From: Minisyncoccia bacterium
GTDB lineage: Bacteria; Patescibacteriota; Minisyncoccia; Phycocordibacterales; UBA9973
Direction of reading: 5' to 3'
Length of the DNA stretch: 53,716 nucleotides
Assembly: GCA_044229265.1 (NCBI GenBank)
Contig: JBGATK010000001.1
Location: 101,776 to 155,491, forward strand
The notes below the pieces were generated by a model that saw nothing but the letters and a program-made list of their open reading frames with translations, did not search any database and was not told where the DNA came from. The translations under genes were made by a program, and so were the position numbers. Shown here one piece after another: positions 1-47,615 of the stretch; the first letter of the stretch is position 1, and the number at the start of each line of letters is the position of its first letter.

Positions 1-741
1 CTCGGTAAGTTAAAAGAAAATATAGACGAGTTAAATAAGCAATATGGAGTTACGAAAGACAAGCCGACATCTAGCGACCCAGCATATGAAGAAAAATTAA
101 AACCATATATTTCAGAATTTGCCCTACTTTCAAAAAATTTAATTACGGGTGATGATGTAGCAGAAGTCGACAGCCTGATGAAAGAAGCACGTGAAGAAAT
201 AAAATACGTCTATGAGGATTTACTGACAGGTGAATATGGTTGCGAAAAAGATCTAGAATTACAAAGAAAAACTCTTGCTGTATTCGACAATAAAGACCTA
301 GGTAATGGTAATAGAAAAGCTCTTTGGACATTGCTTACCACACGAAGAGGTGAGTATCCATTTACTGTATGGTATGACTACAACTTACTAAAAGATGGAG
401 AGTCAATACCAGTGCCAGATGATTTGATAAATACTTATGGACTAAAAAAACCAACTAATAAAATGCCAATTTACCCAGGATTACCGGTAAATGGCGGTCC
501 TGGATTTTTGAGTAATGTTATTTTTGATAATTCAAATGATGTTGGTTGTGAATTCCAATTAAACAATCCCGCAACTGCGTATTGGCTGGATTGTTTGAAA
601 GTAAGTGATTTGTTTAACAATGTAGACAATTTTACCATTACAGTCGCTAGAAACTTTAAAAATTATCCAATAAAAACAGGTAATGATTGGGAAGATTTAT
701 GGAGAGGTTATAGTTTTGAACAAACAATTGGTATTTATTAA
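1..741 (+). CDS. hypothetical protein, 5' end outside window
   Basis: Frame 1 is open from base 1 through the listed ATG at 178 to TAA 739-741. The next gene starts 3 nt later on the same strand. No motif recognised. Confidence 0.5.
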   Translation, partial: LGKLKENIDELNKQYGVTKDKPTSSDPAYEEKLKPYISEFALLSKNLITGDDVAEVDSLMKEAREEIKYVYEDLLTGEYGCEKDLELQRKTLAVFDNKDLGNGNRKALWTLLTTRRGEYPFTVWYDYNLLKDGESIPVPDDLINTYGLKKPTNKMPIYPGLPVNGGPGFLSNVIFDNSNDVGCEFQLNNPATAYWLDCLKVSDLFNNVDNFTITVARNFKNYPIKTGNDWEDLWRGYSFEQTIGIY

Positions 742-744
742 AAA

Positions 745-3700
745 ATGAAAATAAGAAAAATTTACAAAAGCATAGTTTTATCATTAGTATTGTTAATGCT
801 TGTTCTTCCTTCTATAGCTATGGCAGGGTTTCTAGAAACTCGTCCAGCAGATCTTATAAAAAAAGACCAAGCGACTCTGCGCGGTTATTATTTCGATTCT
901 TCTGGTGGTTTTGGTGGTTATAATCAAAACATATTCTTATCTTTTAGTTATTCAAAAACAGAACCTAAAGATAATAAATGTGCAACTTTACATTATCAAA
1001 CAGATACCAAAAAAACTGCTCTTGTGCCTGCTAGCCCTACTAGAACTAATTATAGTAAATTAATTAATCTATTGGACCCAGAAACTAAATACTATTTTTG
1101 TTTTATTGCATATGTAGAAAATGCTGGGGGTTTTGGAGGATCTAAAACTTATACGCCTACTGAATATGGAAAAGTTTTAAACTTTCAAACATTAAAAGGT
1201 TTTAATATAAATAACAATACTAGTGGAACTAAAACGGGTGGGGTTTCGCCAAGAAAAACTCCACCGAATGAGATAGGTGATGTAGAAACATACCTAGCAA
1301 GCAGGACAACAGACACTGAAGCTTTGTTTTCTGGTTATGTAAATCGTCTCTCTGGAGAGGCTTATGCTTATTTCAGATATGCGACACTAGATAAACCTCC
1401 GGTTTTTTGTAATGACATCTATGGCTCAGCGCAGCGTTCAGCAGTAGCAGACAGGCCTAATCCTTATGGCAAAATAAGTAACAATGGCGGAGAAGCAGCA
1501 GCTAGATTGGCCTTGGAAGAAGCAAAAATAAATCTAGAAAATGTTAAAAAAACTCAAGACGCACTTGTAAAGGCAGCTTACTTTAAAATATTAAATACTA
1601 AGCCTTGGGCAATTATAAAAATAAGTGGCGACCCTAAAGCTCAAACACCAATATTACTAGGTGACTATACTAGATATGATCAAGGTGGTGAAATAGATAT
1701 ACAAGTAGGATCACCTTCAGGTGGCAATAAATTTCCAGATTACACATATAGTGGACTCGTAAGTGGAAAAGGGAATGTGGATTTCCCTCAAGATCTAGGT
1801 AATACTGGCCTCACTTTAGATTTTCCTTCTTTTACTTTTATTGCAAATTCAAAATGGAAAATTGTAATTCCAAATACAAACTCTACTGAATATCAAATAA
1901 ATGTAAATAATTACAATCAATCTATAAAAAATAAAGAGAAGGCTATAGCCGATGCAGAGGCTCTAATAAAACAAAGGGAATTTGAATTACAAAAAATCTT
2001 ACAAGGCATCTCTGGAGGATCTGGTTTTTCTACTGTAGTAAAAGGTCTTACAGAAAATACAATATATTATTATTGCGCGATAGTATCAAATAGCTCTGTG
2101 AATCCTACAGAAATAGAATACGGTCCAGTGCAAAGTTTTCGAACTCTTCCTTGTCAGTCTTGCCCAAAAACACATATAACTTCAGTTGGAGTTTCTAATG
2201 TTTCTTCAAATACAGCAAACTTGCAAGGGTCTTATGCTTCAATTCCTGAGGTAGATACATTTTTTGAATACAAAAAAGAATCAGACACGGAATGGAAAAA
2301 AACTTCCAGAGACAATCATGGGGCAAATACTTATGGCAGATTCAATCAAACTATTGCAAGTCTTTCTCCTTCGAGCTTGTATCAATTCCGTGCAGTAGGG
2401 GAAGTTACTACTACAGTAAAAACTAGTGGCGGAGCATCTACTAGTAAAATTTTCTTTGGTGATACACTTTCTTTCCGCACTGGATCTGGAAATCTTTTTG
2501 ATAAATATGGATGGACAGAAGAACCAGAAAAACCAGATCCGGGTGATAATGACACTACTATAGATCCAGAATATCCATACACTGGTGGAATTGACGGAAA
2601 TTGTTCAGATGGTATACAAAATGGAGATGAAACTGGTATAGATTTTGGTGGTAGGTGTGGCAAGAAAACAATTGATCCAGAAAATCCTTTCCCGAATAAT
2701 GGGAATTGCAATGATGGTATACAAAATGGAGATGAAACTGGTATAGATTTTGGTGGTAGGTGTCTAATACCACCACTGCCGACTTGCTTTGATGGCATAC
2801 AAAATAACAATGAGACAGGAATTGATACAGGTGGTTGGTGTGGTGATGGCACAAATGGTAATTGTTCAGATGGTATTAAAAATGGAGATGAAACTGGTGT
2901 AGACACAGGTGGTAGGTGTAGTAATGGTAACGGTAATGGCAATGGTGGTCCAATTATAGTTGTAGGCCCAGGAGGCACAGTAAAAAATAACGGCGGAACC
3001 ACAATTTCAAGTGGTGGCACGACTACTATTTCCGGGGGAACCATTACTACAAGTGGTGGCACGACTACTATTTCCGGGGGAACTACAAATATAAATGGTC
3101 AAAATACAAGTATAAATAATGGTATAGCTACAAATACTGGTGGCACAGCTAGCACTACAGGTGGAACTACTACCTTGCGTGGCGGAACAACTACTATTAC
3201 TTACAAAGATGCGAATGGAAATACTCAAACATTCATTACTAATAGTGAAGTAAAAATTACTAGAAATGGTAATACCAATGTAGTTACATTTAAAGATGTA
3301 AATGGCAATACTCAAACCATAGTTATTAAAGATGGCGAAGGACAAATTACCAATGTCGGCGGTGTGCGCACTACAGAAAATGGCAATACCGTTCTAACTG
3401 GTGGCAGAACAAATGTCCTAGACAATAGATCAGGTCCAAAACTAGGGGATAGATTAACTCCGCCATCTGATGCAATAGTGCGTTATCATGAAGGTATAGA
3501 AACAGTATTTACCAGACAAATAATGCGTAATTTGAGCTTTGCTAAGCTTTATGGTTATGACGATAGTATGAATCTACAAAATTTTGCTGATACCCTTTCT
3601 CATACTTTTGCTAAAGAATACTTTGGTTATATCGATGCCTCTGGCCTTGAAGTGCGTGTTTCCAAGCCAGATGTTTCTGCTTACGAACTGCGCCAAGTGG

Positions 3701-3816
3701 GTGGTGTGCTTACCGTATACGAATATTACGAAAATGTAATTGTAGACATTAGAAACACTACTACAATATTCAAAAATAAAAATCCGTACGAATATTATGA
3801 CAGAAGAAGGAGGTAG
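745..3816 (+). CDS. large secreted repeat protein (signal peptide, FN3-like modules, Cys-bounded DG-x-NGDETG modules, Gly/Thr-rich tract)
   Basis: 1023-aa ORF. N-terminal hydrophobic signal (LVLLMLVLPSIAMA). Recurring segments such as L-x-P-x-T-x-YYF resemble FN3-type modules. Five tandem C-x-DGI-x-NGDETG-x-D-x-GG-x-C units are followed by GGTTTISGG repeats. Confidence 0.75.
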   Translation: MKIRKIYKSIVLSLVLLMLVLPSIAMAGFLETRPADLIKKDQATLRGYYFDSSGGFGGYNQNIFLSFSYSKTEPKDNKCATLHYQTDTKKTALVPASPTRTNYSKLINLLDPETKYYFCFIAYVENAGGFGGSKTYTPTEYGKVLNFQTLKGFNINNNTSGTKTGGVSPRKTPPNEIGDVETYLASRTTDTEALFSGYVNRLSGEAYAYFRYATLDKPPVFCNDIYGSAQRSAVADRPNPYGKISNNGGEAAARLALEEAKINLENVKKTQDALVKAAYFKILNTKPWAIIKISGDPKAQTPILLGDYTRYDQGGEIDIQVGSPSGGNKFPDYTYSGLVSGKGNVDFPQDLGNTGLTLDFPSFTFIANSKWKIVIPNTNSTEYQINVNNYNQSIKNKEKAIADAEALIKQREFELQKILQGISGGSGFSTVVKGLTENTIYYYCAIVSNSSVNPTEIEYGPVQSFRTLPCQSCPKTHITSVGVSNVSSNTANLQGSYASIPEVDTFFEYKKESDTEWKKTSRDNHGANTYGRFNQTIASLSPSSLYQFRAVGEVTTTVKTSGGASTSKIFFGDTLSFRTGSGNLFDKYGWTEEPEKPDPGDNDTTIDPEYPYTGGIDGNCSDGIQNGDETGIDFGGRCGKKTIDPENPFPNNGNCNDGIQNGDETGIDFGGRCLIPPLPTCFDGIQNNNETGIDTGGWCGDGTNGNCSDGIKNGDETGVDTGGRCSNGNGNGNGGPIIVVGPGGTVKNNGGTTISSGGTTTISGGTITTSGGTTTISGGTTNINGQNTSINNGIATNTGGTASTTGGTTTLRGGTTTITYKDANGNTQTFITNSEVKITRNGNTNVVTFKDVNGNTQTIVIKDGEGQITNVGGVRTTENGNTVLTGGRTNVLDNRSGPKLGDRLTPPSDAIVRYHEGIETVFTRQIMRNLSFAKLYGYDDSMNLQNFADTLSHTFAKEYFGYIDASGLEVRVSKPDVSAYELRQVGGVLTVYEYYENVIVDIRNTTTIFKNKNPYEYYDRRRR
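2608..2763 (+). repeat. 51-bp perfect direct repeat (2608-2658 and 2713-2763) inside the coding Cys-bounded modules
   Basis: The string gatggtatacaaaatggagatgaaactggtatagattttggtggtaggtgt occurs twice. A second 30-bp perfect repeat lies at 3010-3039 and 3052-3081. Confidence 0.9.
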
Positions 3817-3873
3817 AATAGGAAAAAGCTTTGGTTTTTTGGTTTTGATTGGTAAAATTAAAGAATACATTAA

Positions 3874-6006
3874 ATGAGAAATATATTTTCAAAGATTTTA
3901 ATTAGTTTCTTCATGCTAGGCATTTTCCTCGTACCTATTTCTGCTAATTTAAATCTACAAAATGCTTTGAGTCCCTCAGTTGAAATTCAAACTAATACAG
4001 CGGAAGCTTGGTGGGGAGCTGCTGGTAATTTTAGTTTGTGGGATGCTATAGTAAAACCAATAGGTGAAGGAATAGGTTGGACTGTTGCTCAAGTTATAAA
4101 AGGATTCTTGTTCTTGATATTTCAAGCTCTTGCCTTATTAGCCAGCATGCTAGCCGATATTTTAGACTTCTTTATTTTTTATTCTATTGGAAGCGATGTA
4201 TATCGTAGCACTTTCGTAGAAGCTGCTTGGGGAACCGTGCGCGATGTAGCAAATATATTCTTTTTACTTGGACTTCTATATGTAGCTATACAAATAGTCT
4301 TAGATATCGGTGTTTCTGAAAAGAAAAAAATGATAGGCAATATCATAGTCATGGCATTACTTGTAAACTTTAGTTTATTTGCCACTCAAGTAGTTATAGA
4401 TGCTTCAAATATTGTAGCTAGAGTATTTTATAATCAAATAGAATCTGTCGACTCTACGGGTAAAAAACTCCCTGAAGGAAAATATTTACCAAAAGCAGTA
4501 ACCGTGAGCTTGGTTAGTACTTTTGATCCAAATAAAATTATCTCTGACCAATCTAGTGTGTATATGGATGTGCTGGCTTATCTGATAATGGTGGGTATTG
4601 TAGGGTATATGTGTTATTTATTCTTAGTCATGACCTTTTTGTTTGTGGGAAGAATAGTTTCACTCTGGGTAGCTATGATATTCGGACCAATTGCATTTAT
4701 GTCGCGAGCACTCGGAATAACGGCCTTGGAAGATTTATCTTGGAAAAATTGGCTCCACAATTTAATAAATTCTGCCATGATGGCACCATTGTTTATATTT
4801 TTCTTATACATAATTTTACTTTTAGGAAAATGGATTGAGACTTTAAAGAAAGACATAGTCATCTTCAGCGGGCAAGGTGATCCATTTATGGCTTTTATCA
4901 CTGTGCTCATACCGATGGCAATTATCTTCACTTTACTCACCAAAGCTAAAAGCTTAGCAATAAAATATTCTGGTGATATAGGTAAAAGCCTAAGTAGTGT
5001 CGGCCCAGCCTTAGCCGGCCTCGCACTCGGTGGAGCAGCGCTTGGAACTGCAGCACTTGGAAGGGGAACTTTTGGCGCAGTGGCTAAATATTCTAAAAAA
5101 GAAAATGATACTAGCCGTAATAAAGATAAAAATATAAGACAAAATATAAAAGATAAATGGAATAATTCTGCATGGTATCAAAAAGCAGGTCTTGTTGCTA
5201 GTAGTGTGTATGGTGGAGGGTTAGCTAAAATAGCTGGTAAAGGATTAGCAGCAAAAGTTGCCGAGAGTTTCACCACAAAAACAAGAGATGCAACTACTGG
5301 TGCTGTAACTCAAAGGACAGGCTTTGGTAATATGGTGGCTGATTACAAAACAAAAACCCATGATTCACAAATCATACAGAGTAAAATTTCTGAGAAAGCA
5401 GATGAATTACACATAGACAAAACTACGAAATGGGCAGATCTTACAGATGACCATAAAACAGAAATAAAGAAAAGTATTAATCAAGATATAATTTCAAAAG
5501 AGATTTATGGAAGAAAATTCAGTAGCCTAACTAACACAGATGAAATTAAAGCAATAAAAAATGCAAATATTACTGATTTGGGAGGAGGAAAAATGGATTA
5601 TAGAGTTACTGATAGCAAAGGATCATATTCCAGACAAAATCAAGACAACGCTGAACACATAGTTAGTGCAGCAAATAAAAATAATGGCTTTTCAGATATT
5701 GTTGGCGAGGCTACTTATTCTGGAGCAAAAGGTAGTTGGGATATTAGAAATATCTCCAAAGCTTCTTCTAAAGAATTAAAATCTGTAGTGGCACTGCTTG
5801 CAGGTATTGCTATACTCCTGCGAGGAGGCTTAAAGAAAAGTAATGTGGAACCTGGTGTAGGACAAAAAGATTTCTACAAAGATTTAACAGAAGTTATTAC
5901 TGGTGCAATGAAAACTGCTGGGGCTGGTGCTTTTGCTTCAGTGGCAAAAGAGGCTGCTCATAAAGCAGGGGGGCATGACGATCACGGTGGTGGAGGGCAT
6001 CATTAG
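3874..6006 (+). CDS. polytopic membrane protein, VirB6/TrbL/PrgH-like by topology and position
   Basis: Signal/TM start, then multiple hydrophobic helices over roughly aa 60-400, and a long Lys/Asp-rich hydrophilic tail ending HDDHGGGGHH. It sits upstream of the PrgI-like and VirB4-like genes, as in Gram-positive T4SS loci. Architecture and synteny only. Confidence 0.55.
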   Translation: MRNIFSKILISFFMLGIFLVPISANLNLQNALSPSVEIQTNTAEAWWGAAGNFSLWDAIVKPIGEGIGWTVAQVIKGFLFLIFQALALLASMLADILDFFIFYSIGSDVYRSTFVEAAWGTVRDVANIFFLLGLLYVAIQIVLDIGVSEKKKMIGNIIVMALLVNFSLFATQVVIDASNIVARVFYNQIESVDSTGKKLPEGKYLPKAVTVSLVSTFDPNKIISDQSSVYMDVLAYLIMVGIVGYMCYLFLVMTFLFVGRIVSLWVAMIFGPIAFMSRALGITALEDLSWKNWLHNLINSAMMAPLFIFFLYIILLLGKWIETLKKDIVIFSGQGDPFMAFITVLIPMAIIFTLLTKAKSLAIKYSGDIGKSLSSVGPALAGLALGGAALGTAALGRGTFGAVAKYSKKENDTSRNKDKNIRQNIKDKWNNSAWYQKAGLVASSVYGGGLAKIAGKGLAAKVAESFTTKTRDATTGAVTQRTGFGNMVADYKTKTHDSQIIQSKISEKADELHIDKTTKWADLTDDHKTEIKKSINQDIISKEIYGRKFSSLTNTDEIKAIKNANITDLGGGKMDYRVTDSKGSYSRQNQDNAEHIVSAANKNNGFSDIVGEATYSGAKGSWDIRNISKASSKELKSVVALLAGIAILLRGGLKKSNVEPGVGQKDFYKDLTEVITGAMKTAGAGAFASVAKEAAHKAGGHDDHGGGGHH

Positions 6007-6033
6007 TTTGGTTAGAAAAATAAAAAAAATATT

Positions 6034-7167
6034 ATGGACCAACAAGAATTACAAAAAACAATAGCCGAGTATTATCAAAAATTGCCACAAAATGCGCAAA
6101 GGGTATTTGCCGAAATGAAATGGCTCGCAGAATTACGCGCAATTAGCCAAAAATACTCTTTAAGCGAAGAACAAATACAAACTCTAGGCACTGAAACCAC
6201 ACTAGTATTACTAGGAGTAATACACCTCGAAGAATACGAAGAAATTCTCGCACGGGAATTAGGATTAGGAAGGGATAAATCTGATCAATTAACAGCAGAG
6301 ATAGATGAAAAAATATTGCGAAACATTCGTGGCGATTTAAATAATTCTTATTCTAATAATTTAGCAGACATTTTTGAAAAAGAAGTAAGTAAAGAAAGTA
6401 ATAATGAAGGCAGAGAGAATCAAGCAAATTCTGTAAACAAAATTGCAGTAAAAATAGAAAGTAAAATGAATCCAAAGTTTTCAAGTCTGCCAGCAAATGT
6501 TTTAGAGGCAGTAAAGAATTCAAATTATCAAGACGAACTTTATAAAATTTCAGAGGATAATGATTTGTCTATCGAACAAATGGGCTTGCTCGAAGAATCT
6601 ATCGCAGAAAGCTTTTTAGGGGAAATACAACCTGCAGAATTTGGTAAGGTTATAAAATCTCGCTTAAATTTAGCTCCAGACAAAGTGAACTTATTAGTTA
6701 ATCAAATCAATGAAAAAATTCTAAAAGAAATTCGCCGAAAAATAATGGGGAATAATAGCACTACCAACAAAACAGAATCTCCTCTCGAAATAAATACTAT
6801 AGAAAGAAATGTAATGCAAAATGCTGGTTTTACTTTATCACCACAAACAGAAAATAAAGTTAGAGACTTTAATGCAAATGATTACAAAGAAAGTTATATG
6901 AAAAATGCTGGTATAGCAGTCGAAAAAGAAAAAGTAGTAGAGCCGAAAAAAGAAATGCCTCAAAATAATAGGGAAATCATGCAAAAAGCAGGTATTAAAA
7001 TAGTAGACGCTCCTAAAAATATAAATATTTTTTCTTCAAAATTAAACACTGAAGTAAAAACAGAGGCAAAAGAAACTGACCATAGTTTCAAAAATTTATC
7101 AAATCAAAATAATAGTGCAATAAACATAAAGAAAAATACAGATCCTTATCGCACTCCAATAGAATAA
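6034..7167 (+). CDS. hypothetical acidic soluble protein
   Basis: 377-aa ORF with no TM segment, Glu/Asn/Lys-rich. Its stop overlaps the next start (TAATG at 7165-7169), implying translational coupling within the operon. Confidence 0.6.
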   Translation: MDQQELQKTIAEYYQKLPQNAQRVFAEMKWLAELRAISQKYSLSEEQIQTLGTETTLVLLGVIHLEEYEEILARELGLGRDKSDQLTAEIDEKILRNIRGDLNNSYSNNLADIFEKEVSKESNNEGRENQANSVNKIAVKIESKMNPKFSSLPANVLEAVKNSNYQDELYKISEDNDLSIEQMGLLEESIAESFLGEIQPAEFGKVIKSRLNLAPDKVNLLVNQINEKILKEIRRKIMGNNSTTNKTESPLEINTIERNVMQNAGFTLSPQTENKVRDFNANDYKESYMKNAGIAVEKEKVVEPKKEMPQNNREIMQKAGIKIVDAPKNINIFSSKLNTEVKTEAKETDHSFKNLSNQNNSAINIKKNTDPYRTPIE

Positions 7168-7577
7168 TGCGTTTTAAAGTTCCACAATTTTTAGATATAG
7201 AAGACAAAATTTTTGGGCCTTTTACTTTTTCCCAATTTATCTACCTTGCTGGCGGTGGGGCAATTTGTTTTGTTCTTTATAAATGGCTGGGGCTCACTAT
7301 TGGCTTTGTTCCTATACTACTTATCGGTGGTTTCTCAGCAGCACTAGTTTGGTATAAAATAAATGGCAAACCATTCATATACACAGTCGAAGCAGCAATA
7401 AAATATTTTTTTCAAACAAAATTATATATTTGGAAAAAAGCTGATGTCCAAAACAGAGCACAAAAAATAGAAATGGTTAGAAAAACTCCCACAGATGATA
7501 AAAATAAGGTAAAATTAGATAGTGGCAAGCTTCGTGATTTAGCTTGGTCGCTCGATGTGCTTGATTTAAAAAAATAA
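7167..7577 (+). CDS. PrgI/VirB3-like small membrane protein
   Basis: The N-terminus MRFKVPQFLDIEDKIFGPFTFSQFIYL followed by two TM helices matches the PrgI-family pattern. The gene lies shortly upstream of the VirB4-like ATPase. Confidence 0.6.
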   Translation: MRFKVPQFLDIEDKIFGPFTFSQFIYLAGGGAICFVLYKWLGLTIGFVPILLIGGFSAALVWYKINGKPFIYTVEAAIKYFFQTKLYIWKKADVQNRAQKIEMVRKTPTDDKNKVKLDSGKLRDLAWSLDVLDLKK

Positions 7578-7583
7578 TTTAAA

Positions 7584-8237
7584 ATGTCATTATTTGCAGA
7601 AAGAACTCAAGATTTTGTGCCCATCAAAGAAGTGCGTGATGGAATAATAGTCCTCAAAAATGGGGAACTACGTGCTGTTGTGCTTGCTAATTCTGTAAAC
7701 CTTTCACTTAAGTCCGAAGACGAACAACGTGCTACCATACTCCAATTCCAAAGTTTTTTAAATACTCTAGATTTTTATGTGCAAATATCCATTCAATCGC
7801 GCAGACTAGACATACGCCCATATCTAATACTGCTCGAAAATAGAATGAAGGTTCAAAATGAACCCCTTTTAAAACTTCAAACCAAAGAATATATTGATTT
7901 TATTAGAAATTTTACCGAATCAGTAAACATAATGACAAAAAACTTTTTTATTGTTGTTCCTTATAGTAATTTTTCTGGAAAACCAGGTGAAAGTGCTCTC
8001 AGTAAAATTTTCAAAAAAGAAAGTAAAGATATGAAAAAAGAATTCGAGCGTGCTAGTTTTGAAGAAAAACGTAGCCAACTCGAAGAACGTGTGTCTGTAG
8101 TCCAACAAGGACTGGCGCGCTGTGGTATCAAATCAGCCCAGCTTGGTTCTGCCGAAATAGTAGAAGTGTTTTACAAAGTTTTTAATCCAGGTGAACTAGA
8201 AGGTAAGATCGATTTAGATAAAATTAGCAATGTTTAA
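7584..8237 (+). CDS. hypothetical protein, resembles the N-terminal module of Gram-positive VirB4/TrsE proteins
   Basis: A segment (DFVPIKEVRDGIIVLKNGELRAVVLANSVNLSLKSEDEQ...FQSFLN) resembles the start of long VirB4-family proteins as I recall them. No NTPase motif. Confidence 0.45.
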   Translation: MSLFAERTQDFVPIKEVRDGIIVLKNGELRAVVLANSVNLSLKSEDEQRATILQFQSFLNTLDFYVQISIQSRRLDIRPYLILLENRMKVQNEPLLKLQTKEYIDFIRNFTESVNIMTKNFFIVVPYSNFSGKPGESALSKIFKKESKDMKKEFERASFEEKRSQLEERVSVVQQGLARCGIKSAQLGSAEIVEVFYKVFNPGELEGKIDLDKISNV

Positions 8238-8272
8238 TTGTTAATTCGCATACGATAACTTATAATTAAAAC

Positions 8273-10114
8273 ATGGGTCTTTTAGATACATTGCTAGGCA
8301 AAAAAAATGAAAACGCAAAGGAAGGTGATCCTTCTATTTTAGCTGTCTTACCGGAAGAAATTTACGAATCTGCAAAACTAGAATTGCAAGACGTCATAGC
8401 TCCTTCAGCTCTAAAGATTGGCTCCAAATCTATCGATCTTGGCGACAAGATTGCTCGTACTTTTTTTATCATATCTTATCCTCGTTATTTAGTAGACAAT
8501 TGGTTCTCGCCAATTATAAATTTAGATAAAATTTTTGATGTTTCTATTTTCGTGCACCCGGTAGATACCACGCTCGCACTTCGCCAATTTCAAAAAAAAG
8601 TTGCTGAAGTAGAGAGTCAAATAAATGAAAGTGAAAGCAAGGGCATGGTTCGTGACCCTATGCTAGACACAGCCTATCAAGACCTCGAAAGCCTGCGCGA
8701 CCAGTTAATACAAGCTCAAGAAAAAATGTTTGATGTGTCAGTCTATATCACTATCTACGCTGACAATGAAATGGAATTATTCAAAGTTGAAAATGAAGTA
8801 AAGTCTATCCTAGAATCAAAACTTATTTACATAAAACCAGCTCTTTTCCAACAAGAAGAAGGTTTCAAGAGTGTGATACCAATAGGCAATGATTTACTCG
8901 AAATAACTCAGAAATTAAATTCTGAACCACTTTCATCTATTTTCCCATTTATTTCTTTCGACTTAACCAGCGATAAAGGCATACTCTACGGTGTAAATCG
9001 CCATAATTCTTCACTAGTTATTTTTGATCGTTTTTCACTTGAAAATTACAATTCAGTTGTATTCGCAAAATCTGGCTCTGGTAAAAGTTATGCGATGAAA
9101 TTAGAAATCTTGCGTTCACTGATGTTCGATATAGATGTTATAGTTATTGACCCTGAACGTGAATACGAATATCTATCAGATGCAGTAGGGGGTAGATATT
9201 TTAACATTTCACTTTCTTCTGATCACCATATCAATCCTTTTGACCTGCCAATACCAAGAGAAGATGAAACGGCTGAAGATGTCTTACGTTCAAATATCAT
9301 AAACCTAGTAGGTCTTTTTCGTTTGATGCTAGGAGGACTTACTCCAGAAGAAGACTCACTGGTAGATCGCGCTATCTCAGAAACATATGCCATAAAAGAT
9401 ATCACCCCAGAATCAGACTTTTCAAATATTGAGCCTCCACTTCTTTCTGATTTTGAAATGGTCCTCTCAGGCATGCAAGGCTCAGAATCGGTAGTGCAGA
9501 GATTAGTGAAATACACCAAAGGGTCTTGGGCTACTTTCCTAAATCGACCTTCAAATGTGGATATAAATAAAAAATTCGTAGTTTTTTCAGTTCGTGATAT
9601 GGAAGACGAATTAAAACCAATAGCCATGTATATAGTCATGCACTATATATGGAATTCTGTGCGTAAAAACTTAAAGAAACGCCTATTAGTAGTGGATGAA
9701 GCTTGGTGGATGATGAAAAGTGAAGATACAGCTTCATTCTTATACTCTATGGCAAAACGCGGACGTAAATATTACTTGGGCCTAGCTACTATTACTCAAG
9801 ATGCTGCGGATTTTATGAAAAGCCCTTATGGCATACCTATTATTACAAACTCTTCTATTCAAATTCTCTTAAAACAATCACCGAGCACTATAGATATACT
9901 CCAAAAAACCTTCAACTTAACAGATGAAGAGAAATATTTATTACTAGAAAGTGGCGTAGGTGAAGGTATATTCTTTGCTGGGCTTAAACATGTGGCTATT
10001 AAGGTCATCTCATCTTATACCGAAGACCAAATAATTACTTCTGACCCCTCACAGATACTATCTATAAAAAAATCCAAAGAAGATTTTGAGAGTAGTGATT
10101 TGCAAAACAGTTAA
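8273..10114 (+). CDS. virB4: VirB4/TrsE-type type IV secretion ATPase
   Basis: Walker A AKSGSGKS, Walker B LLVVDEAWWMM, and the ATITQD segment typical of VirB4/TraG-type NTPases. Gene context is T4SS-like. Confidence 0.8.
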   Translation: MGLLDTLLGKKNENAKEGDPSILAVLPEEIYESAKLELQDVIAPSALKIGSKSIDLGDKIARTFFIISYPRYLVDNWFSPIINLDKIFDVSIFVHPVDTTLALRQFQKKVAEVESQINESESKGMVRDPMLDTAYQDLESLRDQLIQAQEKMFDVSVYITIYADNEMELFKVENEVKSILESKLIYIKPALFQQEEGFKSVIPIGNDLLEITQKLNSEPLSSIFPFISFDLTSDKGILYGVNRHNSSLVIFDRFSLENYNSVVFAKSGSGKSYAMKLEILRSLMFDIDVIVIDPEREYEYLSDAVGGRYFNISLSSDHHINPFDLPIPREDETAEDVLRSNIINLVGLFRLMLGGLTPEEDSLVDRAISETYAIKDITPESDFSNIEPPLLSDFEMVLSGMQGSESVVQRLVKYTKGSWATFLNRPSNVDINKKFVVFSVRDMEDELKPIAMYIVMHYIWNSVRKNLKKRLLVVDEAWWMMKSEDTASFLYSMAKRGRKYYLGLATITQDAADFMKSPYGIPIITNSSIQILLKQSPSTIDILQKTFNLTDEEKYLLLESGVGEGIFFAGLKHVAIKVISSYTEDQIITSDPSQILSIKKSKEDFESSDLQNS

Positions 10115-10142
10115 TATGTTATAATAGCAATATAATAAATAT

Positions 10143-11126
10143 ATGAATAAATTAGGAAAATTAAAAATTGTTTTTCTTTTGGCTTTAATATTTTCTCCAT
10201 TTTTTTCTTTTGCTCAGCTTCGTGTAGGTGATGTTGTTCTTACGATTTCACCTGAAAATCCAAAGGAAGGAGAGCAAATAACTGCGACACTTACTAGTTA
10301 TGCTACAAATTTAAATGTGGCTTATATTTCTTGGCTTACCAACGACAGCTTAGTTACTGAAGGGGTTGGTAAAAAAATCTTTTATTTTAATGCTGGGGAT
10401 TTAAATACTGACATAAATCTAACAGCACGCATAAATACCACAGAAGGTGATACTATTTTAAAAACTATCACCATATCTCCTACAGAGATAGATCTACTTT
10501 GGGAAGCTACTGATTCCTATGTGCCACCTTTTTACAAAGGCAAAGCTCTAATAGCACAAGAAGGAACATACAAAGTTGTAGCAATACCAAATGTATATTC
10601 TTTGGGTGGTAAAATAAATCCACTAAATCTCTCTTACACTTGGGTTAGAGACGGCACAGTATCGCAGAATTATTCTGGTTGGGGAAAAAATTATTATATT
10701 TTCAAAAATAGCTATCTAGAAAAAGAAAACGAAATAGAAGTAAGTGCAGTAGATATTTTAGGTAAAGTAAAACCTGTTGGCAAAACTACACTCGAAACAT
10801 TTACTCCTAAGGTAATTTTCTATAAAAAAAACCCAGAGTTTGGTTTGGATTTGAGTAAAGGCATACAAAATAACTATAATTTAGACAAAGAAGGTGAAAC
10901 CTTGGTAGCTGTACCTTATTTTTTCTCTCCTAAGAATCTAAATAAAGATGAATTAAAATTTGAGTGGACTATAGATGAGGATAGAATTTCAACTCCTACA
11001 AATAAAAACGAGATCAGTCTAAAAGGTGAAGAAGGGAATAGTGGAACATCTGTCATAAAACTTTTAATAAAAAATACTAAAACACTTTTTCAAGAGTTAG
11101 AAACAAGCATTAATGTCAATTTTTAA
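10143..11126 (+). CDS. secreted protein of unknown function
   Basis: Signal peptide (FLLALIFSPFFSFAQ) with beta-rich composition. Overlaps the next gene by 14 nt. Confidence 0.6.
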   Translation: MNKLGKLKIVFLLALIFSPFFSFAQLRVGDVVLTISPENPKEGEQITATLTSYATNLNVAYISWLTNDSLVTEGVGKKIFYFNAGDLNTDINLTARINTTEGDTILKTITISPTEIDLLWEATDSYVPPFYKGKALIAQEGTYKVVAIPNVYSLGGKINPLNLSYTWVRDGTVSQNYSGWGKNYYIFKNSYLEKENEIEVSAVDILGKVKPVGKTTLETFTPKVIFYKKNPEFGLDLSKGIQNNYNLDKEGETLVAVPYFFSPKNLNKDELKFEWTIDEDRISTPTNKNEISLKGEEGNSGTSVIKLLIKNTKTLFQELETSINVNF

Positions 11127-12045
11127 TAAAAAAAGAATAAGAAATATATTTCTAAGTATTATTATACTTTTTTCTATTACTTTTAGTTTTGCATATGCAC
11201 AAGAAAATGTTTTAAAAGGTAATAAAACTAAAGACACAAATGATACTTACAATTTACTTGCACCTTTTGGCGATAAACTAAAATCTTTCTCTACAGACAC
11301 AGAATGTGCCCTGACAGGTTATGTAAATATTATTTTTGATTTATTTATTGGCATTTGTGCAGTACTCGCTTTTGTAATGTTGGTAATAGGAGGAATTCAA
11401 TATATGGGTAGTGAGCTAATTTCCAGTAAAGAAGCCGCTAAAAGCCAAGCCACGAACGCTATATTAGGCCTCCTAGTCGCTTTTTCTGCTTGGCTAATAC
11501 TAAATACCATAAACCCAAAACTACTAGATTTTTGTTTAGATAAGAATTTACCGAATGTAGAAATCTCAGCAGAAACTCACGAAGAAACTCTAGGTGTTGA
11601 AGGTAAAAATGCCGTATTGTTTAATGGTCAAACTTTAACAGCTTGTAATCCTGCAGATATTACAAAAATAAATTTTATGGGTAAAGAAATAGAAGTAAAT
11701 AAAGCTGTAGCGTCTGAATTAAATGAAATAAATAAAGAGTGGCTTTTTACCGTAGATCCTGAAATAAAAAATTATAAAATAGACACTATTTATGGTTATG
11801 TTTGTAAACATGTTAAAGATCAACCTACTAAAACTTCAGCTCATTCATTTGGACTTGCTTTAGATATTAATCCTGGCCAAAATCCATACACAAAATCAGG
11901 ATGCCAAACAAACATGCCTCCTAGTTTTGTGAGATTATTTACATCCCGTGGTTGGGGTTGGGGAGGCAATTGGTCAAGCGTTAAAGATCCAATGCATTTT
12001 AGCAAATTAAGCACAGAAACAAGGGGTAATGCTCCTTGTCCATAA
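11113..12045 (+). CDS. fusion of a TrbC/VirB2-like pilin module and an M15-family peptidoglycan peptidase
   Basis: Signal peptide, then two hydrophobic helices flanking a short polar loop (AVLAFVMLVIGGIQYMGSE...ILGLLVAFSAWLILNTI), which is a VirB2-like layout. The C-terminal half carries SAHSFGLALDINP and WGWGGNW...DPMHF, the zinc-ligand motifs of M15 (VanY/endolysin-type) peptidases. Confidence 0.65.
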   Translation: MSIFNKKRIRNIFLSIIILFSITFSFAYAQENVLKGNKTKDTNDTYNLLAPFGDKLKSFSTDTECALTGYVNIIFDLFIGICAVLAFVMLVIGGIQYMGSELISSKEAAKSQATNAILGLLVAFSAWLILNTINPKLLDFCLDKNLPNVEISAETHEETLGVEGKNAVLFNGQTLTACNPADITKINFMGKEIEVNKAVASELNEINKEWLFTVDPEIKNYKIDTIYGYVCKHVKDQPTKTSAHSFGLALDINPGQNPYTKSGCQTNMPPSFVRLFTSRGWGWGGNWSSVKDPMHFSKLSTETRGNAPCP

Positions 12046-13412
12046 AATTTATGTCAAAAAATAAACTTATAGTTATAATAGTAATTTTTATTCTCTTAGC
12101 AGGAGGAGGCTTTTGGTATTTTAATATACAAAAAACTACAGGTGGAGAAAATAAAGGAAATTCTTTTACAAATTTTTTCGCCAGCTTTAATCCTTTTGCA
12201 AAAATCACAAACAAAGATGAAAATGGTGATGGAATAATAGATGTGAATGAGGGTGAAGAAAATGGGGAAGGTACTGTAAATAAAGCTCGTTTTTTTCGTC
12301 TATCAAGTAGTCCAATTTCTGGTTATACTGTTTTTCAAAAAGAACGCTATTTAGATTTATCTAAAGAAGCAGAAATACAAGATGGCCTAGAAGAAGAAAT
12401 AAAAAACCTAGATACTATTGACTCTAGTATTAATACTGATTCCGATCTATCTGCCCCTAGCACTGAATACGCTCCTTTTATTCGTTATGCTGAAAAATCA
12501 ACTGGTAATATTTATCAAACTTTTGCTGATAAAATCAGTGAGCGCAAATACTCAAGCACGATAGTCAAAGGTGTGCATGAAAGTATTTTTGGTGCTAATG
12601 GTGAAAATGTAATTATGCGTTATCTAAAAACAGATGGTCATACTATATCTTCTTATGTAGGAACACTACCAAAAGAAACACTTGGCGCGGATTCTATAAC
12701 TGCAAATGATTTAACTGGTGCTTTTCTGCCTGAAGGTGTGCTCGAAGCTACTTATTCTAATGATGGAACAAAAATGTTTTATATATTACCCTACAAAGAT
12801 GGAGTAGTGGGTATTAGTGCTTTTGCTGATAGTAGTCGAAAAAATCAAATATTTGAATCTGCTTTTAGCGAATGGCTTCTGGACTGGCCTAGTAAAGACA
12901 TAATAACCCTAACGACTAAACCAGCTTCAATTGCAGATGGTTTTATGTATACTTTAAATCCAAATACAAAATCTTTCGATAAAGTAATAGGCGGAATCAA
13001 GGGGCTGACAACTAAAATGAGTCCAAATGGAGCTTATGTCCTGTTTGCAGATAAAGACTTAACCCTAAGCATTTACAATACAGCAAAGAAGCAAAAAACT
13101 CAGCTTCCTATAAAAACTTTACCAGAAAAATGTGTTTGGGGTAGTAATAATGAAACTATTTACTGCGGTGTGCCTAAATATGTTGAAAAAAGTGATTATC
13201 CGGATTCTTGGTATCAAGGGTTAATAAGTTTTAATGATGATATTTGGAAGATAGATGTAATAAGTGGTAATGCTGATCTAGTATTAGAACCTGGCCAATA
13301 TTTAGAAAATACCAATCTAGATATGATAAATTTAAAAGTTGATGAAAATATGAATTATCTATTTTTAATGGATAGAAAGACCAATTATCTTTACGAATAT
13401 AAATTAATATAA
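12036..13412 (+). CDS. membrane-anchored protein, possibly beta-propeller (TolB/PD40-like repeats)
   Basis: N-terminal TM helix (LIVIIVIFILLAGGGFWYF). Later segments such as SPNGAYVLFADKD resemble PD40 repeats. Last gene of the operon and followed by a terminator. Confidence 0.55.
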   Translation: MSIKFMSKNKLIVIIVIFILLAGGGFWYFNIQKTTGGENKGNSFTNFFASFNPFAKITNKDENGDGIIDVNEGEENGEGTVNKARFFRLSSSPISGYTVFQKERYLDLSKEAEIQDGLEEEIKNLDTIDSSINTDSDLSAPSTEYAPFIRYAEKSTGNIYQTFADKISERKYSSTIVKGVHESIFGANGENVIMRYLKTDGHTISSYVGTLPKETLGADSITANDLTGAFLPEGVLEATYSNDGTKMFYILPYKDGVVGISAFADSSRKNQIFESAFSEWLLDWPSKDIITLTTKPASIADGFMYTLNPNTKSFDKVIGGIKGLTTKMSPNGAYVLFADKDLTLSIYNTAKKQKTQLPIKTLPEKCVWGSNNETIYCGVPKYVEKSDYPDSWYQGLISFNDDIWKIDVISGNADLVLEPGQYLENTNLDMINLKVDENMNYLFLMDRKTNYLYEYKLI

Positions 13413-13440
13413 AAAACTCCCCAATATATTGGGGAGTTTT
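13413..13440. terminator. bidirectional intrinsic terminator between convergent genes
   Basis: A 10-bp perfect stem (aaaactcccc / ggggagtttt) with an 8-nt loop, flanked by A-run and T-run. It overlaps the jag stop codon. Confidence 0.8.
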
Positions 13441-15492: not shown

Positions 15493-15521
15493 TAATCCAC
15501 ATTATCAACAGGTTATCAACA
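15493..15521 (+). promoter_or_regulatory. three tandem DnaA-box-like 9-mers
   Basis: taatccaca (15493-15501), ttatcaaca (15502-15510) and ttatcaaca (15513-15521), each one mismatch from TTATCCACA. Located in the rpmH-dnaA spacer. Confidence 0.6.
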
Positions 15522-15563
15522 TAATTGGAGTATAAATAAGATTTTAAAAAAGAGTTTAGATAG

Positions 15564-15569
15564 TATAAT
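15564..15569 (+). promoter_or_regulatory. -10 element (TATAAT) of dnaA, 7 nt before the ATG
   Basis: tagTATAATcataccaATG. The spacing implies a leaderless or near-leaderless transcript. Confidence 0.5.
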
Positions 15570-15576
15570 CATACCA

Positions 15577-16917
15577 ATGGATACAAAACAACTTTGGAAT
15601 AACTGTTTACAAGCATTTGAAGCAGAGGTATCTAAGGCAAATTTTAGCACTTGGTTTAAAAACACATCTATCGTGAAAGACGAAGAGGGGATAATACATA
15701 TCGGTGTACCAAATGAATTTGTTCGTGATTGGCTAAAGCATAAATATCATAAAATGATCACCAAGAATATTGCTGATTTGTATGAAAACATGCGTGCGGT
15801 AGAGTATGTGATAATAAAACTAGATCAAAATAAAGAAAATGTTGATAAAAAGGTTGAAAACTTTTCAAACGAAGAACTTCCACTAAAAGATCTATATATA
15901 AACCCAGATGATAATCTAAACCCTAGATATAGATTTGATACTTTTATCGTTGGTGGTTTCAACGAGCTCGCTTACGCAGCTACTCAAGCTATCATCGATT
16001 CTCCTGGCACTAAATACAATCCATTCTTTATTTATGGTGGCACAGGTCTTGGAAAAACCCACCTTATTCAGGCAGTAGGGAATGCTATAAAAGAAAGACA
16101 CCCAAACAAAAAAGTAAATTACATTACTTTAGAAAAATTTGCTACTGATTTTATAAATTCCCTTCAAGGAAATCGGGCTAACTCTTTCAAAGAGAAGTAT
16201 AGAAAGTACGACCTTCTAATAATTGACGATATTCAGTTCATAGGGAAGATGGAAAAAATACAAGAAGAACTTTTTCACACCTTTAATACTTTTTATGAAA
16301 ATAATAAGCAAATTATCTTTTCTTCTGATAAACACCCGAACCATATTCCAGAGCTCGCAGATCGTCTAAAATCACGTTTTGCTCAAGGAATGATAGTCGA
16401 CGTAGCTGAACCGGAATTTGAATCCAGGCTCGCAATTTTAAAGGTAAAAACCACAGAACAAGGTGTTTATTTAGATAAAGAAATTTTAGAATATATTGCA
16501 TCTGTAATTCGTGGCAACATAAGAGAACTTGAAGGAAGTTTAAATACAGTGGTTTGCCAATATAAACTCAAGAAGAATATATCTCTAAATGAAGTAAAAA
16601 ATATATTAAAAAATAATATCAAACCTAAAAAAACGGTTGCTATAAAAGATGTAGTAAAGACAGTTAGTGATTATTACAACATAGAAGAATCTTCAATATA
16701 TGATAAAACCAGAAGAAAAGAGATAGTAAAAGCTCGCCAAATAGTTATGTTTATCCTGCGAGAAGATTTTAATGTGTCTTATCCTCTCATAGGTCAAAAA
16801 CTAGGAGGAAAAGATCATACTACTGTTATCCACTCATACTTAAAAATAAAAGAAGATATGGCAGCAGACCCAGAGTTATCCCAAGAATTAGAACAAATAA
16901 GAATTATGTTTAAATAG
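15577..16917 (+). CDS. dnaA: chromosomal replication initiator DnaA
   Basis: Walker A GGTGLGKTHL, Walker B LLIIDDIQF, sensor and box VII region, and a C-terminal DNA-binding helix (GGKDHTTVIH). Confidence 0.97.
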   Translation: MDTKQLWNNCLQAFEAEVSKANFSTWFKNTSIVKDEEGIIHIGVPNEFVRDWLKHKYHKMITKNIADLYENMRAVEYVIIKLDQNKENVDKKVENFSNEELPLKDLYINPDDNLNPRYRFDTFIVGGFNELAYAATQAIIDSPGTKYNPFFIYGGTGLGKTHLIQAVGNAIKERHPNKKVNYITLEKFATDFINSLQGNRANSFKEKYRKYDLLIIDDIQFIGKMEKIQEELFHTFNTFYENNKQIIFSSDKHPNHIPELADRLKSRFAQGMIVDVAEPEFESRLAILKVKTTEQGVYLDKEILEYIASVIRGNIRELEGSLNTVVCQYKLKKNISLNEVKNILKNNIKPKKTVAIKDVVKTVSDYYNIEESSIYDKTRRKEIVKARQIVMFILREDFNVSYPLIGQKLGGKDHTTVIHSYLKIKEDMAADPELSQELEQIRIMFK

Positions 16918-17155
16918 CTGTGGATAAAGGTGTAAAAAACAAGTAAAAGTATTTAATAAAACTGTTTATAAATAAAAATAATTGTGTATAAAAAAATAGT
17001 AATAAATTATAGTGTGCATAAAAGTAAGTTTATTAACTTTTTTAAAAAAATAAAATATTAAAAAAACATTATTAAATAAGATTAAAAAAAGTTTTCCACT
17101 TATCAACAGGGCTAATAGTAGTAATAAATTATATATATAAATAATAAACAAAAAT
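16918..17155. other. candidate oriC / DNA-unwinding region (dnaA-dnaN spacer)
   Basis: Extremely AT-rich 238-bp spacer. Bounded by a perfect DnaA box (tgtggataa, 16919-16927, reverse orientation) and ttatcaaca at 17100-17108 next to ttttccact. Confidence 0.6.
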
Positions 17156-25496: not shown

Positions 25497-27194
25497 TTAT
25501 TCTTCGTATAAATCTACTACACTTTGCACTTCTTCGACTGAAGTAATTCCATTTAATATCTTTACTATACCATCCTCTCGCATTGAAAGTATACCTTGGG
25601 TTTTGGCTATTTTTTTTATCTCTCTTTCTGATGGGTTGATAGACATTATGTTTTCAATTTTTTCATCGGTTTTTATTGCTTCAAATATACCTATGCGTCC
25701 TTTGAAACCAGTTTGATTGCATTTGTCACAACCGGTGTGAGTGTATAGTTTTATAGGAGCATCTTTTGTAAGACCATATGTGGCTAAATCTTTATTTTGT
25801 TCAACCATGCCGGAAATAATTTCTTTTATAATTTCTATTTCTTTTCCCGGATTAATTTTTTCTGTTTTGCAATAATTGCAAAGTTTGCGTACTAGGCGCT
25901 GTGCAAGCGATAGGGAAAGTGCCGAGCCCATTATTTTTGGATTTACTTCGAGATCAATCAAGCGTGGAATAACTCCCGCAGCATTGTTTGTGTGTAAAGT
26001 AGAAAAAACAAGGTGCCCAGTCAGTGCTGATTGCACAGCTATTTTTGCAGTTTCTTTGTCGCGAATTTCTCCGACCATAATTACATCAGGATCTTGGCGA
26101 AGTGCAGCCCGCAGGCCCTCTAAGAATCCGTACTCTTCTTCGCCATCTACTTGAGTTTGAGTAATTCCACCAAGTCTATATTCCACTGGGTCTTCAATAG
26201 TAATTATATTTATTTCAGTCGAATATATTTTTCGTAGGAATGCATACAGTGTGGTAGTTTTACCAGAACCAGTAGGGCCAGTCACTAAGATAAGACCATT
26301 TGGTTTTTTTATTTCTTCTTCGATTATATTAAATAAATATTTTTCTATACCCATATCTTCTAATTTTATTTGAATAGATTTTGGATCGAGTATACGCATA
26401 ACTATAGCCTCGCCAAAAGATCCTGGTATAAGTGATGTACGAATACTTATCTCTTCATCACCTTCTTCTATGCTGAATCTACCATCTTGAGCATTTTCTG
26501 AAGTTAATTTCATGCCCGAGAGTAATTTGATGCGAGAGTTCAGTAAGCGATAAATTTGTGGAGTAAAAAAACACAAATCTTGCAGGACACCATCGAGGCG
26601 TAGACGAAGACGAGCGCGTTCTTTTTCAGCTTCGATATGTATATCTGAAGCACCGATAGATATTGCTCCCGCTAGTATTATTTCCAGTAGGCGAGTTAAT
26701 TTATGTACCTTTTCTTTATTTAAATTCTCATCGATAAGCACTTTTATATCTTGCATTTGTTTTATAGCTTTTGCTGTATCACGCAAAACTTCTGCTGATA
26801 TATCGATACCTCCGATTTTACTATTTTCTGCCATTGAGAGCTCGAGATATCTACCCCAAACTTTTTCTATTGAAGCACCTGATGCCATGTAAAATTTTGG
26901 TATTAAATTCGAGCGAGCCATCTCTTCGGTTAGTTTATCTTCTAAATCTTTGCTTGGGCTACGAAGAGCGATAAAAATGTTTTTTCCAGAAAGTTTAAAT
27001 GGAGCTACTTTTAAAGCGTGAGCATCTTTTTCATTTATATAGCGAAGGGCTTCGTTATCAATACCGAGGCGGTATAGGTCTACGTAGGGAAGGCCATATT
27101 TGCTTTCAGATAATACTGATACTAATTCTTCCTCCTCTTTTCTACGAAGTTCGTCTAATTGCTTATTTTGTTTGTCTTCATCAAAAGTGTGCAT
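25497..27194 (-). CDS. PilB/GspE-family secretion ATPase
   Basis: Walker A GPTGSGKTT, Asp box, Walker B VIMVGEIRD, His box TGHLVFSTLHTN, and a tetracysteine motif (CNYC...CDKC). The ATG at 27194 is preferred over the track's TTG at 27200. PilB cannot be separated from GspE by eye. Confidence 0.88.
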   Translation of the reverse strand: MHTFDEDKQNKQLDELRRKEEEELVSVLSESKYGLPYVDLYRLGIDNEALRYINEKDAHALKVAPFKLSGKNIFIALRSPSKDLEDKLTEEMARSNLIPKFYMASGASIEKVWGRYLELSMAENSKIGGIDISAEVLRDTAKAIKQMQDIKVLIDENLNKEKVHKLTRLLEIILAGAISIGASDIHIEAEKERARLRLRLDGVLQDLCFFTPQIYRLLNSRIKLLSGMKLTSENAQDGRFSIEEGDEEISIRTSLIPGSFGEAIVMRILDPKSIQIKLEDMGIEKYLFNIIEEEIKKPNGLILVTGPTGSGKTTTLYAFLRKIYSTEINIITIEDPVEYRLGGITQTQVDGEEEYGFLEGLRAALRQDPDVIMVGEIRDKETAKIAVQSALTGHLVFSTLHTNNAAGVIPRLIDLEVNPKIMGSALSLSLAQRLVRKLCNYCKTEKINPGKEIEIIKEIISGMVEQNKDLATYGLTKDAPIKLYTHTGCDKCNQTGFKGRIGIFEAIKTDEKIENIMSINPSEREIKKIAKTQGILSMREDGIVKILNGITSVEEVQSVVDLYEE

Positions 27195-27255
27195 TATCAA
27201 GTAATTATACTATATTAGAGGCCTTAAAATAAAGGATTTTTAAGCATTTTTACCC

Positions 27256-47421: not shown

Positions 47422-47615
47422 ATATTTTTTGATTAAAACCCACGCCAAAGGCGGGGTAAATTGCTAATAAACTTTGATTTATAAAGTTGAAATAGTAAAA
47501 CTCACTTCCACTTATTTCCCAGGGAGTATATCATTTTTTGTTAAAAAAGTCAAGACCTAGCTCAAAAATATAATATCTTAGATATTTATAGTGTATTTGG
47601 AATTTTTGCACAATG

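Follow-up and report, generated by a model that had tools for sequence, protein, structure and literature searches.

We have analyzed a window of 53,716 nucleotides from the genome of a Minisyncoccia bacterium (positions 101776-155491 of contig C3, GenBank JBGATK010000001.1), in which ten open reading frames (ORFs), all on the + strand, fill positions 1-13412. With a probability that we would put at roughly 85%, this locus encodes a chromosomal type IV secretion system (T4SS) of the kind found in Patescibacteria, a derivative of the conjugation machinery of monoderms (mating-pair formation class FATA, MPF-FATA) that has lost the link to DNA processing and acts as a conduit for contact with a host cell and not for conjugation. 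The source genome is a Nomurabacteria/Paceibacteria metagenome-assembled genome (MAG) of 640 kb in 11 contigs, with ca. 34.6% G+C and rated 97% complete. The initial annotation of the window had proposed a chromosomal, non-conjugative secretion or cell-contact apparatus akin to the PrgH-PrgI-PrgJ-PrgK core, and this proposal is supported by the profiles of the core proteins, the lack of relaxases of five Pfam families and the synteny among relatives. That these systems are T4SS, that they have no relaxase and that they lie close to dnaA was already published between 2023 and 2025 (PMC12102498; PMC10633639; PMC12857230), so the identification is correct and not new, and the window adds no new kind of system. 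What it offers is a clean and complete Paceibacteria example, with a defined part list that includes a confidently modelled stalk of three immunoglobulin (Ig)-like domains, of one of the few machines common to almost all Patescibacteria, essential in the one species tested.

All the ORFs that had been named before are present on the + strand with their coordinates unchanged. The parts of the locus and the features that close it are:

1-741, + strand: 3' end of the gene of a 975-residue envelope protein (full gene C3:99589-102516)
745-3816, + strand: secreted, highly variable surface protein of 1023 residues
3874-6006, + strand: VirB6-like polytopic membrane protein of 710 residues (transmembrane scan, AlphaFold2 model, Foldseek)
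6034-7167, + strand: acidic protein of 377 residues with two helical repeats of ca. 100 residues
7167-7577, + strand: PrgI/VirB3-like small membrane protein of 136 residues (PF12666)
7584-8237, + strand: TrsD-like protein of 217 residues, a detached N-terminal domain of VirB4 (NF045975, NF045971, NF041427)
8273-10114, + strand: body of the VirB4 ATPase, 613 residues (NF045971, CD1110 family)
10143-11126, + strand: membrane-anchored stalk protein of 327 residues (AlphaFold2 model)
11113-12045, + strand: fusion of a pilin with an M15 peptidase (PF18895, PF13539)
12036-13412, + strand: membrane-anchored protein of 458 residues with an N-terminal transmembrane helix, the last gene
13413-13440, no strand: bidirectional intrinsic terminator, 12-bp stem AAAACTCCCCAA/TTGGGGAGTTTT with A- and T-runs on its flanks
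15493-17108: replication origin region, with DnaA-box clusters on both sides of dnaA (15577-16917)

For the motor core of the locus, the profile searches support all three previous assignments, i.e., PrgI/VirB3 (PF12666), the N-terminal domain of VirB4 (NF045975/NF041427) and VirB4 itself (NF045971). The ATPase scored 378.5 bits against the CD1110 family equivalog NF045971 (cut-off 325), the family name of which also annotates PrgJ on the pCF10 record, and its Walker A (AKSGSGKS) and Walker B (LLVVDEAW) motifs are intact. The small PrgI-like protein, the start of which overlaps the stop of the upstream acidic-protein gene, reached 30.3 bits against PF12666 (cut-off 27). The 217-residue product matched positions 103-281 of NF045975 (the Mbov_0397 VirB4 model), 2-167 of NF045971 and, with an E value of 1.5e-6, the TrsD/TraD family NF041427. 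On the same NF045975 model the ATPase takes up positions 285-892, directly after those of its neighbor, and therefore both ORFs tile one VirB4. The split is genuine and not a frameshift: the TrsD-like protein and VirB4 are kept as separate ORFs in 77 related loci, just as plasmid pGO1 carries the N-terminal domain of VirB4 separately (TrsD/TrsE; PMC12102498). The ATPase is 45-74% identical to its homologues across the phylum and 26% identical to pCF10 PrgJ (E 6e-45, aligned from PrgJ residue 228 on). By BLASTP, the similarity of the window's PrgI to pCF10 PrgI and of the TrsD-like protein to the N-terminus of PrgJ was undetectable or weak, and profiles alone detect both.

The ten ORFs are tightly packed, with spacers of 3, 57, 27, -1, 6, 35, 28, -14 and -10 nt (a range of -14 to +57), and a single hairpin closes the row, both as described in the initial annotation. 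This terminator separates the last gene of the operon from the convergent jag-yidC-rnpA block and is shared with jag. The claim that the locus abuts the replication origin also holds, as ca. 2 kb separate the end of the operon from the DnaA-box clusters on either side of dnaA (15493-15521 and 16919-17108), where dnaN is found too. At the other end, the first ORF of the window is made up of the last 246 codons of the 975-residue gene, which is itself preceded by the genes of a 312-residue membrane-anchored protein and a 128-residue secreted protein, located directly after uvrD-ksgA. The operon thus extends beyond the first base of the window, by 3.6 kb or more on its upstream side. Between ksgA and the envelope genes that follow we found no terminator and no convincing promoter. 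Neither a relaxase nor a VirD4 gene lies just upstream of the window, where we found uvrD, ksgA and envelope genes. The G+C content of the locus is the same as in the rest of the genome. Five of the ten products had no match in Pfam or NCBIfam, in agreement with the earlier estimate that about half of the components lack a recognizable motif.

Using VirB4 as the query, we collected 80 related loci (76-89% identity), nearly all of them from MAGs of Candidatus Nomurabacteria, Paceibacterota or Parcubacteria. The conservation of the operon across related genomes, which the initial annotation had suggested checking, is high: the gene order is colinear in 54 of the 57 loci that hold all seven core genes, dnaA lies at a median distance of 2.1 kb downstream in the 48 of these 57 loci whose retrieved stretch includes it, and the same housekeeping genes flank the locus in the relatives. 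The median identities to the window's proteins across the related loci were:

VirB4: 85% (80 loci)
DnaA: 77%
TrsD-like protein: 70% (77 loci)
DnaN: 64%
PrgI: 54% (74 loci)
Envelope-exposed proteins: 29-38%

The giant proteins and the tail of the pilin are largely non-homologous between relatives. Such a fall in identity, from a cytoplasmic motor to a hypervariable surface, is what one would expect of a machine that contacts a host. At a larger scale, 192 of the 201 genomes of the phylum that we sampled (96%) encode a VirB4 homologue, as do 170 of the 174 of high quality. Given the synteny, the conservation of VirB4, the phylum-wide presence and the ordinary G+C content, the locus is a core, vertically inherited machine and not an integrated conjugative element (ICE).

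A decayed or cryptic ICE, i.e., a relic whose relaxase, coupling protein and integrase were lost or lie elsewhere, is suggested at first sight by the names of the VirB4, PrgI and TrsD families, all taken from conjugative elements, and by three VirD4-like ATPases encoded in the genome. We consider this extremely improbable and have rejected it, because of the synteny just described, the absence of the five relaxase families considered below and the conservation of the locus, in which VirB4 is better conserved than DnaA across the 80 loci. The ORFs are moreover all intact, the G+C content is that of the rest of the genome, and 96% of the sampled genomes of the phylum have the system.

The absence of a relaxase from the locus, which had been pointed out before, extends to the whole genome (97% complete) for the five Pfam families PF03432, PF01076, PF02486, PF08751 and PF07514, while the classes MOBC, MOBM and MOBB were not searched. 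The case of the coupling protein is different. Within the locus, neither the Pfam and NCBIfam profiles nor the flanking genes revealed a VirD4 or other type IV coupling protein (T4CP), so the previous statement that there is none is true of the locus and fails for the genome, in which three VirD4/TrwB-like ATPases are encoded elsewhere:

C8:29066-31306: 746 residues, with a treble-clef zinc finger
C7:20171-21634, - strand: 487 residues
C9:8553-11306: 917 residues

The three are unlinked to the operon and show no N-terminal membrane anchor by eye (no transmembrane prediction was run), and one of them has an N-terminal extension of ca. 500 residues. Of the 31 genomes of the class that were sampled, 30 hold paralogues of these ATPases. 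Two of the three adjoin dnaK/dnaJ here, and a link between T4CP-like ATPases and Hsp70 was considered and dropped, since 11 orthologous loci of the class have no DnaK in their flanks. Also unlinked, on still another contig (C4:75094-77242), is a tandem array of five genes for VirB2-like pilins of 113-153 residues, each above the cut-off of PF18895; a divergent array of the same kind has been reported to be essential in S. epibionticum. The earlier picture, of a T4SS that is 'minimal' and has no coupling protein, missed the remote ATPases and the five-gene array and has therefore to be corrected.

All this is very much what has been described for the phylum. In the Saccharibacterium S. epibionticum an unusual Gram-positive-like T4SS with pilins and without relaxase or coupling protein (SEML1_0006-0019) is essential for epibiotic growth (Wang, 2023; PMC10633639). 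A survey of 3,035 Patescibacteria genomes (Quinonero-Coronel, 2025; PMC12102498) found that their VirB4 proteins form a monophyletic clade nested in MPF-FATA, and it also found TrsD, PrgI, a rarely detectable VirB6, VirB2-like pilins and pilin arrays, ca. two T4CP homologues in each genome, remote from virB4, and hardly any relaxases; in Paceibacteria specifically, the T4SS was found near dnaA, dnaN, rnpA and ksgA. A review of 2025 restates the survey and speculates on a pilus conduit (PMC12857230), and a preprint of 2026 describes, by cryo-electron microscopy, tubular parasite-to-host structures in another member of the group and argues for feeding on host RNA (bioRxiv 10.64898/2026.06.21.733656). 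Our locus shares with these systems the MPF-FATA VirB4 with its adjacent TrsD, the PrgI/VirB3 protein, a candidate for a divergent VirB6, VirB2-like pilins that include an array, the lack of a relaxase, T4CP-like genes far from virB4 and the position beside dnaA, dnaN, rnpA and ksgA. It differs in that the pilin array of this genome is unlinked and on another contig, in that the pilin inside the cluster is fused to a wall hydrolase with a cassette that varies between close relatives, and in the additions of its clade, i.e., a three-Ig stalk, a putative TolB-like propeller, the 312-residue anchored protein and giant variable proteins.

Compared to the Gram-positive MPF-FATA systems (PrgH-PrgI-PrgJ-PrgK-PrgL of pCF10, TrsC-TrsD-TrsE of pGO1, CD1110 of CTn2), the locus has the same order of polytopic protein, PrgI, VirB4 and wall hydrolase, the NCBIfam VirB4 family in common with pCF10 PrgJ, a separate TrsD as in pGO1 and a hydrolase that is likewise membrane-anchored. 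However, the low identity to PrgJ given above sets it apart, as do its location outside any mobile element and its VirB2-like pilins, which those systems lack, and it is without relaxase, oriT, in-cluster membrane T4CP, a recognized PrgL/VirB8-like protein and LPXTG adhesins. The ICE of Mycoplasma, which unlike our locus is mobile and has DNA-processing genes, offers another parallel, as the VirB4 of the window scored 269 bits on the Mbov_0397 model and the pilin hairpin matched weakly (E 0.005) the Mbov_0395 pilin-like family, both matches being below the curated cut-offs. The Mbov_0395 and Mbov_0397 families are neighbors by their locus tags. From these matches, a pilin-like hairpin beside VirB4 would be found also in another wall-less or monoderm branch of MPF-FATA, which hints that the hairpin may be an old component of MPF-FATA and not one borrowed from diderm systems.

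The protein of 710 residues has the layout of an 'extended VirB6', with a leader, a core of 6-7 transmembrane helices (residues ca. 70-385), a long hydrophilic and disordered tail and a last transmembrane helix. In the AlphaFold model, built with 58 orthologues, the predicted local distance difference test (pLDDT) is >85 over residues ca. 70-385, and a Foldseek search of the model against 350,542 PDB chains gave, as the best matches of this core, several chains of R388 TrwI/VirB6 (E 0.033-0.5, probability 0.77-1.0, template-modelling (TM) score 0.42-0.51); the top matches had an E value of 0.033, a probability of 1.0 and a TM score of 0.48-0.51, and all other matches were of low probability. 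Sequence comparisons gave nothing of the kind: the Pfam TrbL/VirB6 family matched none of the 58 orthologues, the profile of the family against PDB sequences gave chance or coiled-coil matches only, and an hhalign comparison with pCF10 PrgH was not significant (E 0.09). Because no sequence profile supports homology, we use 'VirB6-like' in the limited sense of a predicted fold and a gene position. An extreme divergence of VirB6 has been reported across the Patescibacteria T4SS (PMC12102498), which fits the missing profile matches. The VirB6/PrgH-like call of the initial annotation thus has the topology, the position and a predicted TrwI/VirB6-like fold in its favor, and finds no support in sequence profiles or in the alignment to PrgH.

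The ORF at 11113-12045 codes for a signal peptide, a VirB2-like pilin hairpin (residues ca. 46-137) and a C-terminal M15 zinc peptidase (ca. 176-310). That a pilin-like domain and an M15 hydrolase are joined here had been recognized before, and both profiles are indeed found in this one ORF (T4SS_pilin, PF18895, 35.7 bits with a cut-off of 26.6, residues 71-133; Peptidase_M15_4, PF13539, 65.3 bits, residues 239-297). The hairpin is conserved in 71 loci, 65 of which carry a C-terminal tail of 155-280 residues, and the N-terminal extensions that precede it range from 28 to 478 residues among the orthologues. The nature of the tail changes from one relative to another, and the domains assigned by Pfam among their loci were:

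NlpC/P60: 11 loci
VanY: 8 loci
YkuD: 5 loci
Amidase_5: 5 loci, at least 2 of which also match NlpC/P60
M15_4: 4 loci, the window included
SLT or SLT_2: 3 loci
Amidase_2: 1 locus
3D: 1 locus

Several of the tails without a Pfam match show, read by eye, the LAS-type motif HxnD...HxH or the lytic-transglycosylase motif ES...GLFQ. Clustering by BLAST resulted in at least 19 unrelated tail types among 65 tails of ≥100 residues. On the VirB4 tree these types need 43 changes, against a possible minimum of 18; with the labels shuffled the figure was 46.6 ± 1.7, and 19 of 500 shuffles came down to the observed value. Well-supported sister pairs carry different types. Among close relatives the wall-hydrolase cassette is thus exchanged almost at random, something that looks undescribed; a fusion of pilin and hydrolase was not found described in the papers on the Patescibacteria T4SS (PMC10633639, PMC12102498). 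The plain reading, by analogy, is that the fusion would be the VirB1/PrgK-type wall hydrolase of the system, anchored by the pilin-like hairpin. A bolder proposal, which we regard as rather unlikely, is that it is a polymorphic T4SS-associated effector, displayed on the pilus or delivered by it, that would cut the peptidoglycan of the host, with a bond specificity (LAS/M15, NlpC/P60, YkuD-fold, lytic transglycosylase or amidase) that would track the chemotype of the host wall and help to set the host range. The swapped cassette is a testable handle on how epibionts breach a wall, be it their own or that of the host.

The rest of the locus codes for envelope proteins, with one probable exception, the acidic protein, which is probably cytoplasmic because it has no transmembrane segment and the N-terminal half of which is conserved in 43 loci. 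The 327-residue protein after VirB4 is present in 74 loci, and its model (pLDDT 93.9; predicted TM score 0.82) consists of an N-terminal transmembrane helix followed by three tandem Ig/FN3-like beta-sandwich domains that have only generic Ig-domain fold neighbors. A VirB8-like identity was considered for this protein and rejected, as the fold is Ig-like and not NTF2-like. For the last protein of the operon (458 residues), the initial annotation had suggested a propeller; the profile of its family gave a marginal match to TolB in the PDB (E 0.022), and of 67 orthologues 7 showed weak PD40 repeats and 5 a PG_binding_1 domain, so that a TolB-like beta-propeller is plausible but not proven. The 975-residue protein starts with a signal peptide, carries a triple hydrophobic segment near its center, is conserved among relatives only around residues 176-400 and gave no informative family or PDB match. 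Along similar lines, the family profiles of the 312-residue, 327-residue, 975-residue and acidic proteins found only chance or coiled-coil matches in the PDB. The secreted protein of 1023 residues, which combines FN3-like segments with Cys-bounded Asp/Gly modules and Gly/Thr repeats, occurs in just 14 of the 80 loci; its C-terminal ca. 150 residues are common to all 14, and residues ca. 400-575 to up to 11. Its FN3-like segments are 27-32% identical to those of a 1102-residue DUF11 surface protein encoded in the window (44140-47448, - strand) and of the product of another gene, 88 kb upstream (C3:13731-14207), so that these modular surface proteins may form a family.

In diderm systems, VirB4 is the ATPase that assembles the pilus. 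With pilin genes, a wall hydrolase, a propeller family with peptidoglycan-binding members and adhesin-like giant proteins dominating the locus, one could see in it a surface or wall structure and nothing else, i.e., an adhesion pilus or a device to remodel the cell's own wall, in which VirB4 would serve assembly alone and nothing would be transported between the cell and its host. We find this unlikely. Adhesion is already served by type IV pili (a PilB-like ATPase is encoded at 25497-27200 of the window; PMC10633639), the VirB6-like channel protein and the three T4CP-like ATPases are conserved, and if the hydrolase acted only on the cell's own, stable wall, so rapid an exchange of its cassette would be difficult to account for.

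A host-contact conduit could work as follows. VirB4/TrsD would dock on PrgI and the VirB6-like protein to form a membrane translocon, the hairpin-anchored hydrolase would open the peptidoglycan, and the three-Ig stalk and the TolB-like propeller would scaffold the passage through the wall. The remote array of five pilin genes would supply a pilus-like tube that contacts the host bacterium of the epibiont and acts as a conduit for macromolecules, and not for conjugation. As to the direction of transport, the cell may export or display proteins, the hydrolase cassette among them, or it may take up host material, and the two seem to us about equally likely.

The inward direction has a more specific form, in which the system is a macromolecule importer, like ComB of Helicobacter pylori or Ced of archaea, that pulls host DNA or RNA into a cell auxotrophic for nucleotides. 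Those two systems are also VirB4-based, free of relaxases and without a dedicated in-cluster coupling protein, whereas ComB is of the diderm VirB type and no DNA-binding component was recognized at our locus. The importer gains from this parallel, from the ubiquity of the T4SS in a phylum that lacks nucleotide synthesis (PMC12102498) and from the 2026 preprint, which ties the monophyly of VirB4 to feeding on host RNA (10.64898/2026.06.21.733656). However, the deletion of comEC in S. epibionticum ends competence and not viability (PMC12857230, citing PMC10633639), so the essential function is something other than DNA uptake through the known route. No protein of the locus matches a nucleic-acid-binding profile, and the hydrolase cassettes and variable surface proteins fit an outward action at least equally well. 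We hold the importer as a possibility, clearly the weaker one next to the host-contact conduit in its general form and stronger than a mere surface structure.

Several points weigh against the host-contact conduit. Essentiality is known from one Saccharibacterium only, outside Paceibacteria, and the VirB2-like proteins are only putative formers of a polymer. The VirD4-like ATPases, soluble proteins encoded away from the operon, are only putative parts of this T4SS, and the search for relaxases covered five Pfam families. For VirB6, homology has no support from sequence profiles, and no profile match revealed a VirB8-like (PrgL/TraM, NTF2-fold) component at the locus. As to expression, short contigs from four wastewater metatranscriptomes, 98.5-100% identical to the window, cover most of the operon genes at a depth of 2-7, and one of them (7014-7239) runs from the acidic-protein gene into prgI; the low depth and a possible carry-over of DNA make this a weak support for transcription.

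Apart from the T4SS, three small features of this part of the genome deserve mention. Just before uvrD, upstream of the operon, there is a gene for a 103-residue DUF5663 protein (C3:95003-95314), and a GC-rich palindrome with a 9-bp stem (AGCGCTCCA...TGGAGCGCT) lies inside the 5' coding end of uvrD (C3:95356-95379). Close to the far end of the window, a 526-residue ORF (50659-52239, + strand) codes for a LexA that is complete, with both its DNA-binding domain and its S24 peptidase, and is joined to a C-5 cytosine DNA methyltransferase. Beside it is the gene of a 360-residue protein without family match, possibly a restriction enzyme (52240-53322, - strand), and nearby is a gene pair for a ThsB-like TIR protein and a small membrane protein (49511-50573, - strand). 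The whole looks like a small defense island in which a self-cleaving regulator of the SOS type has been placed on a methylase.

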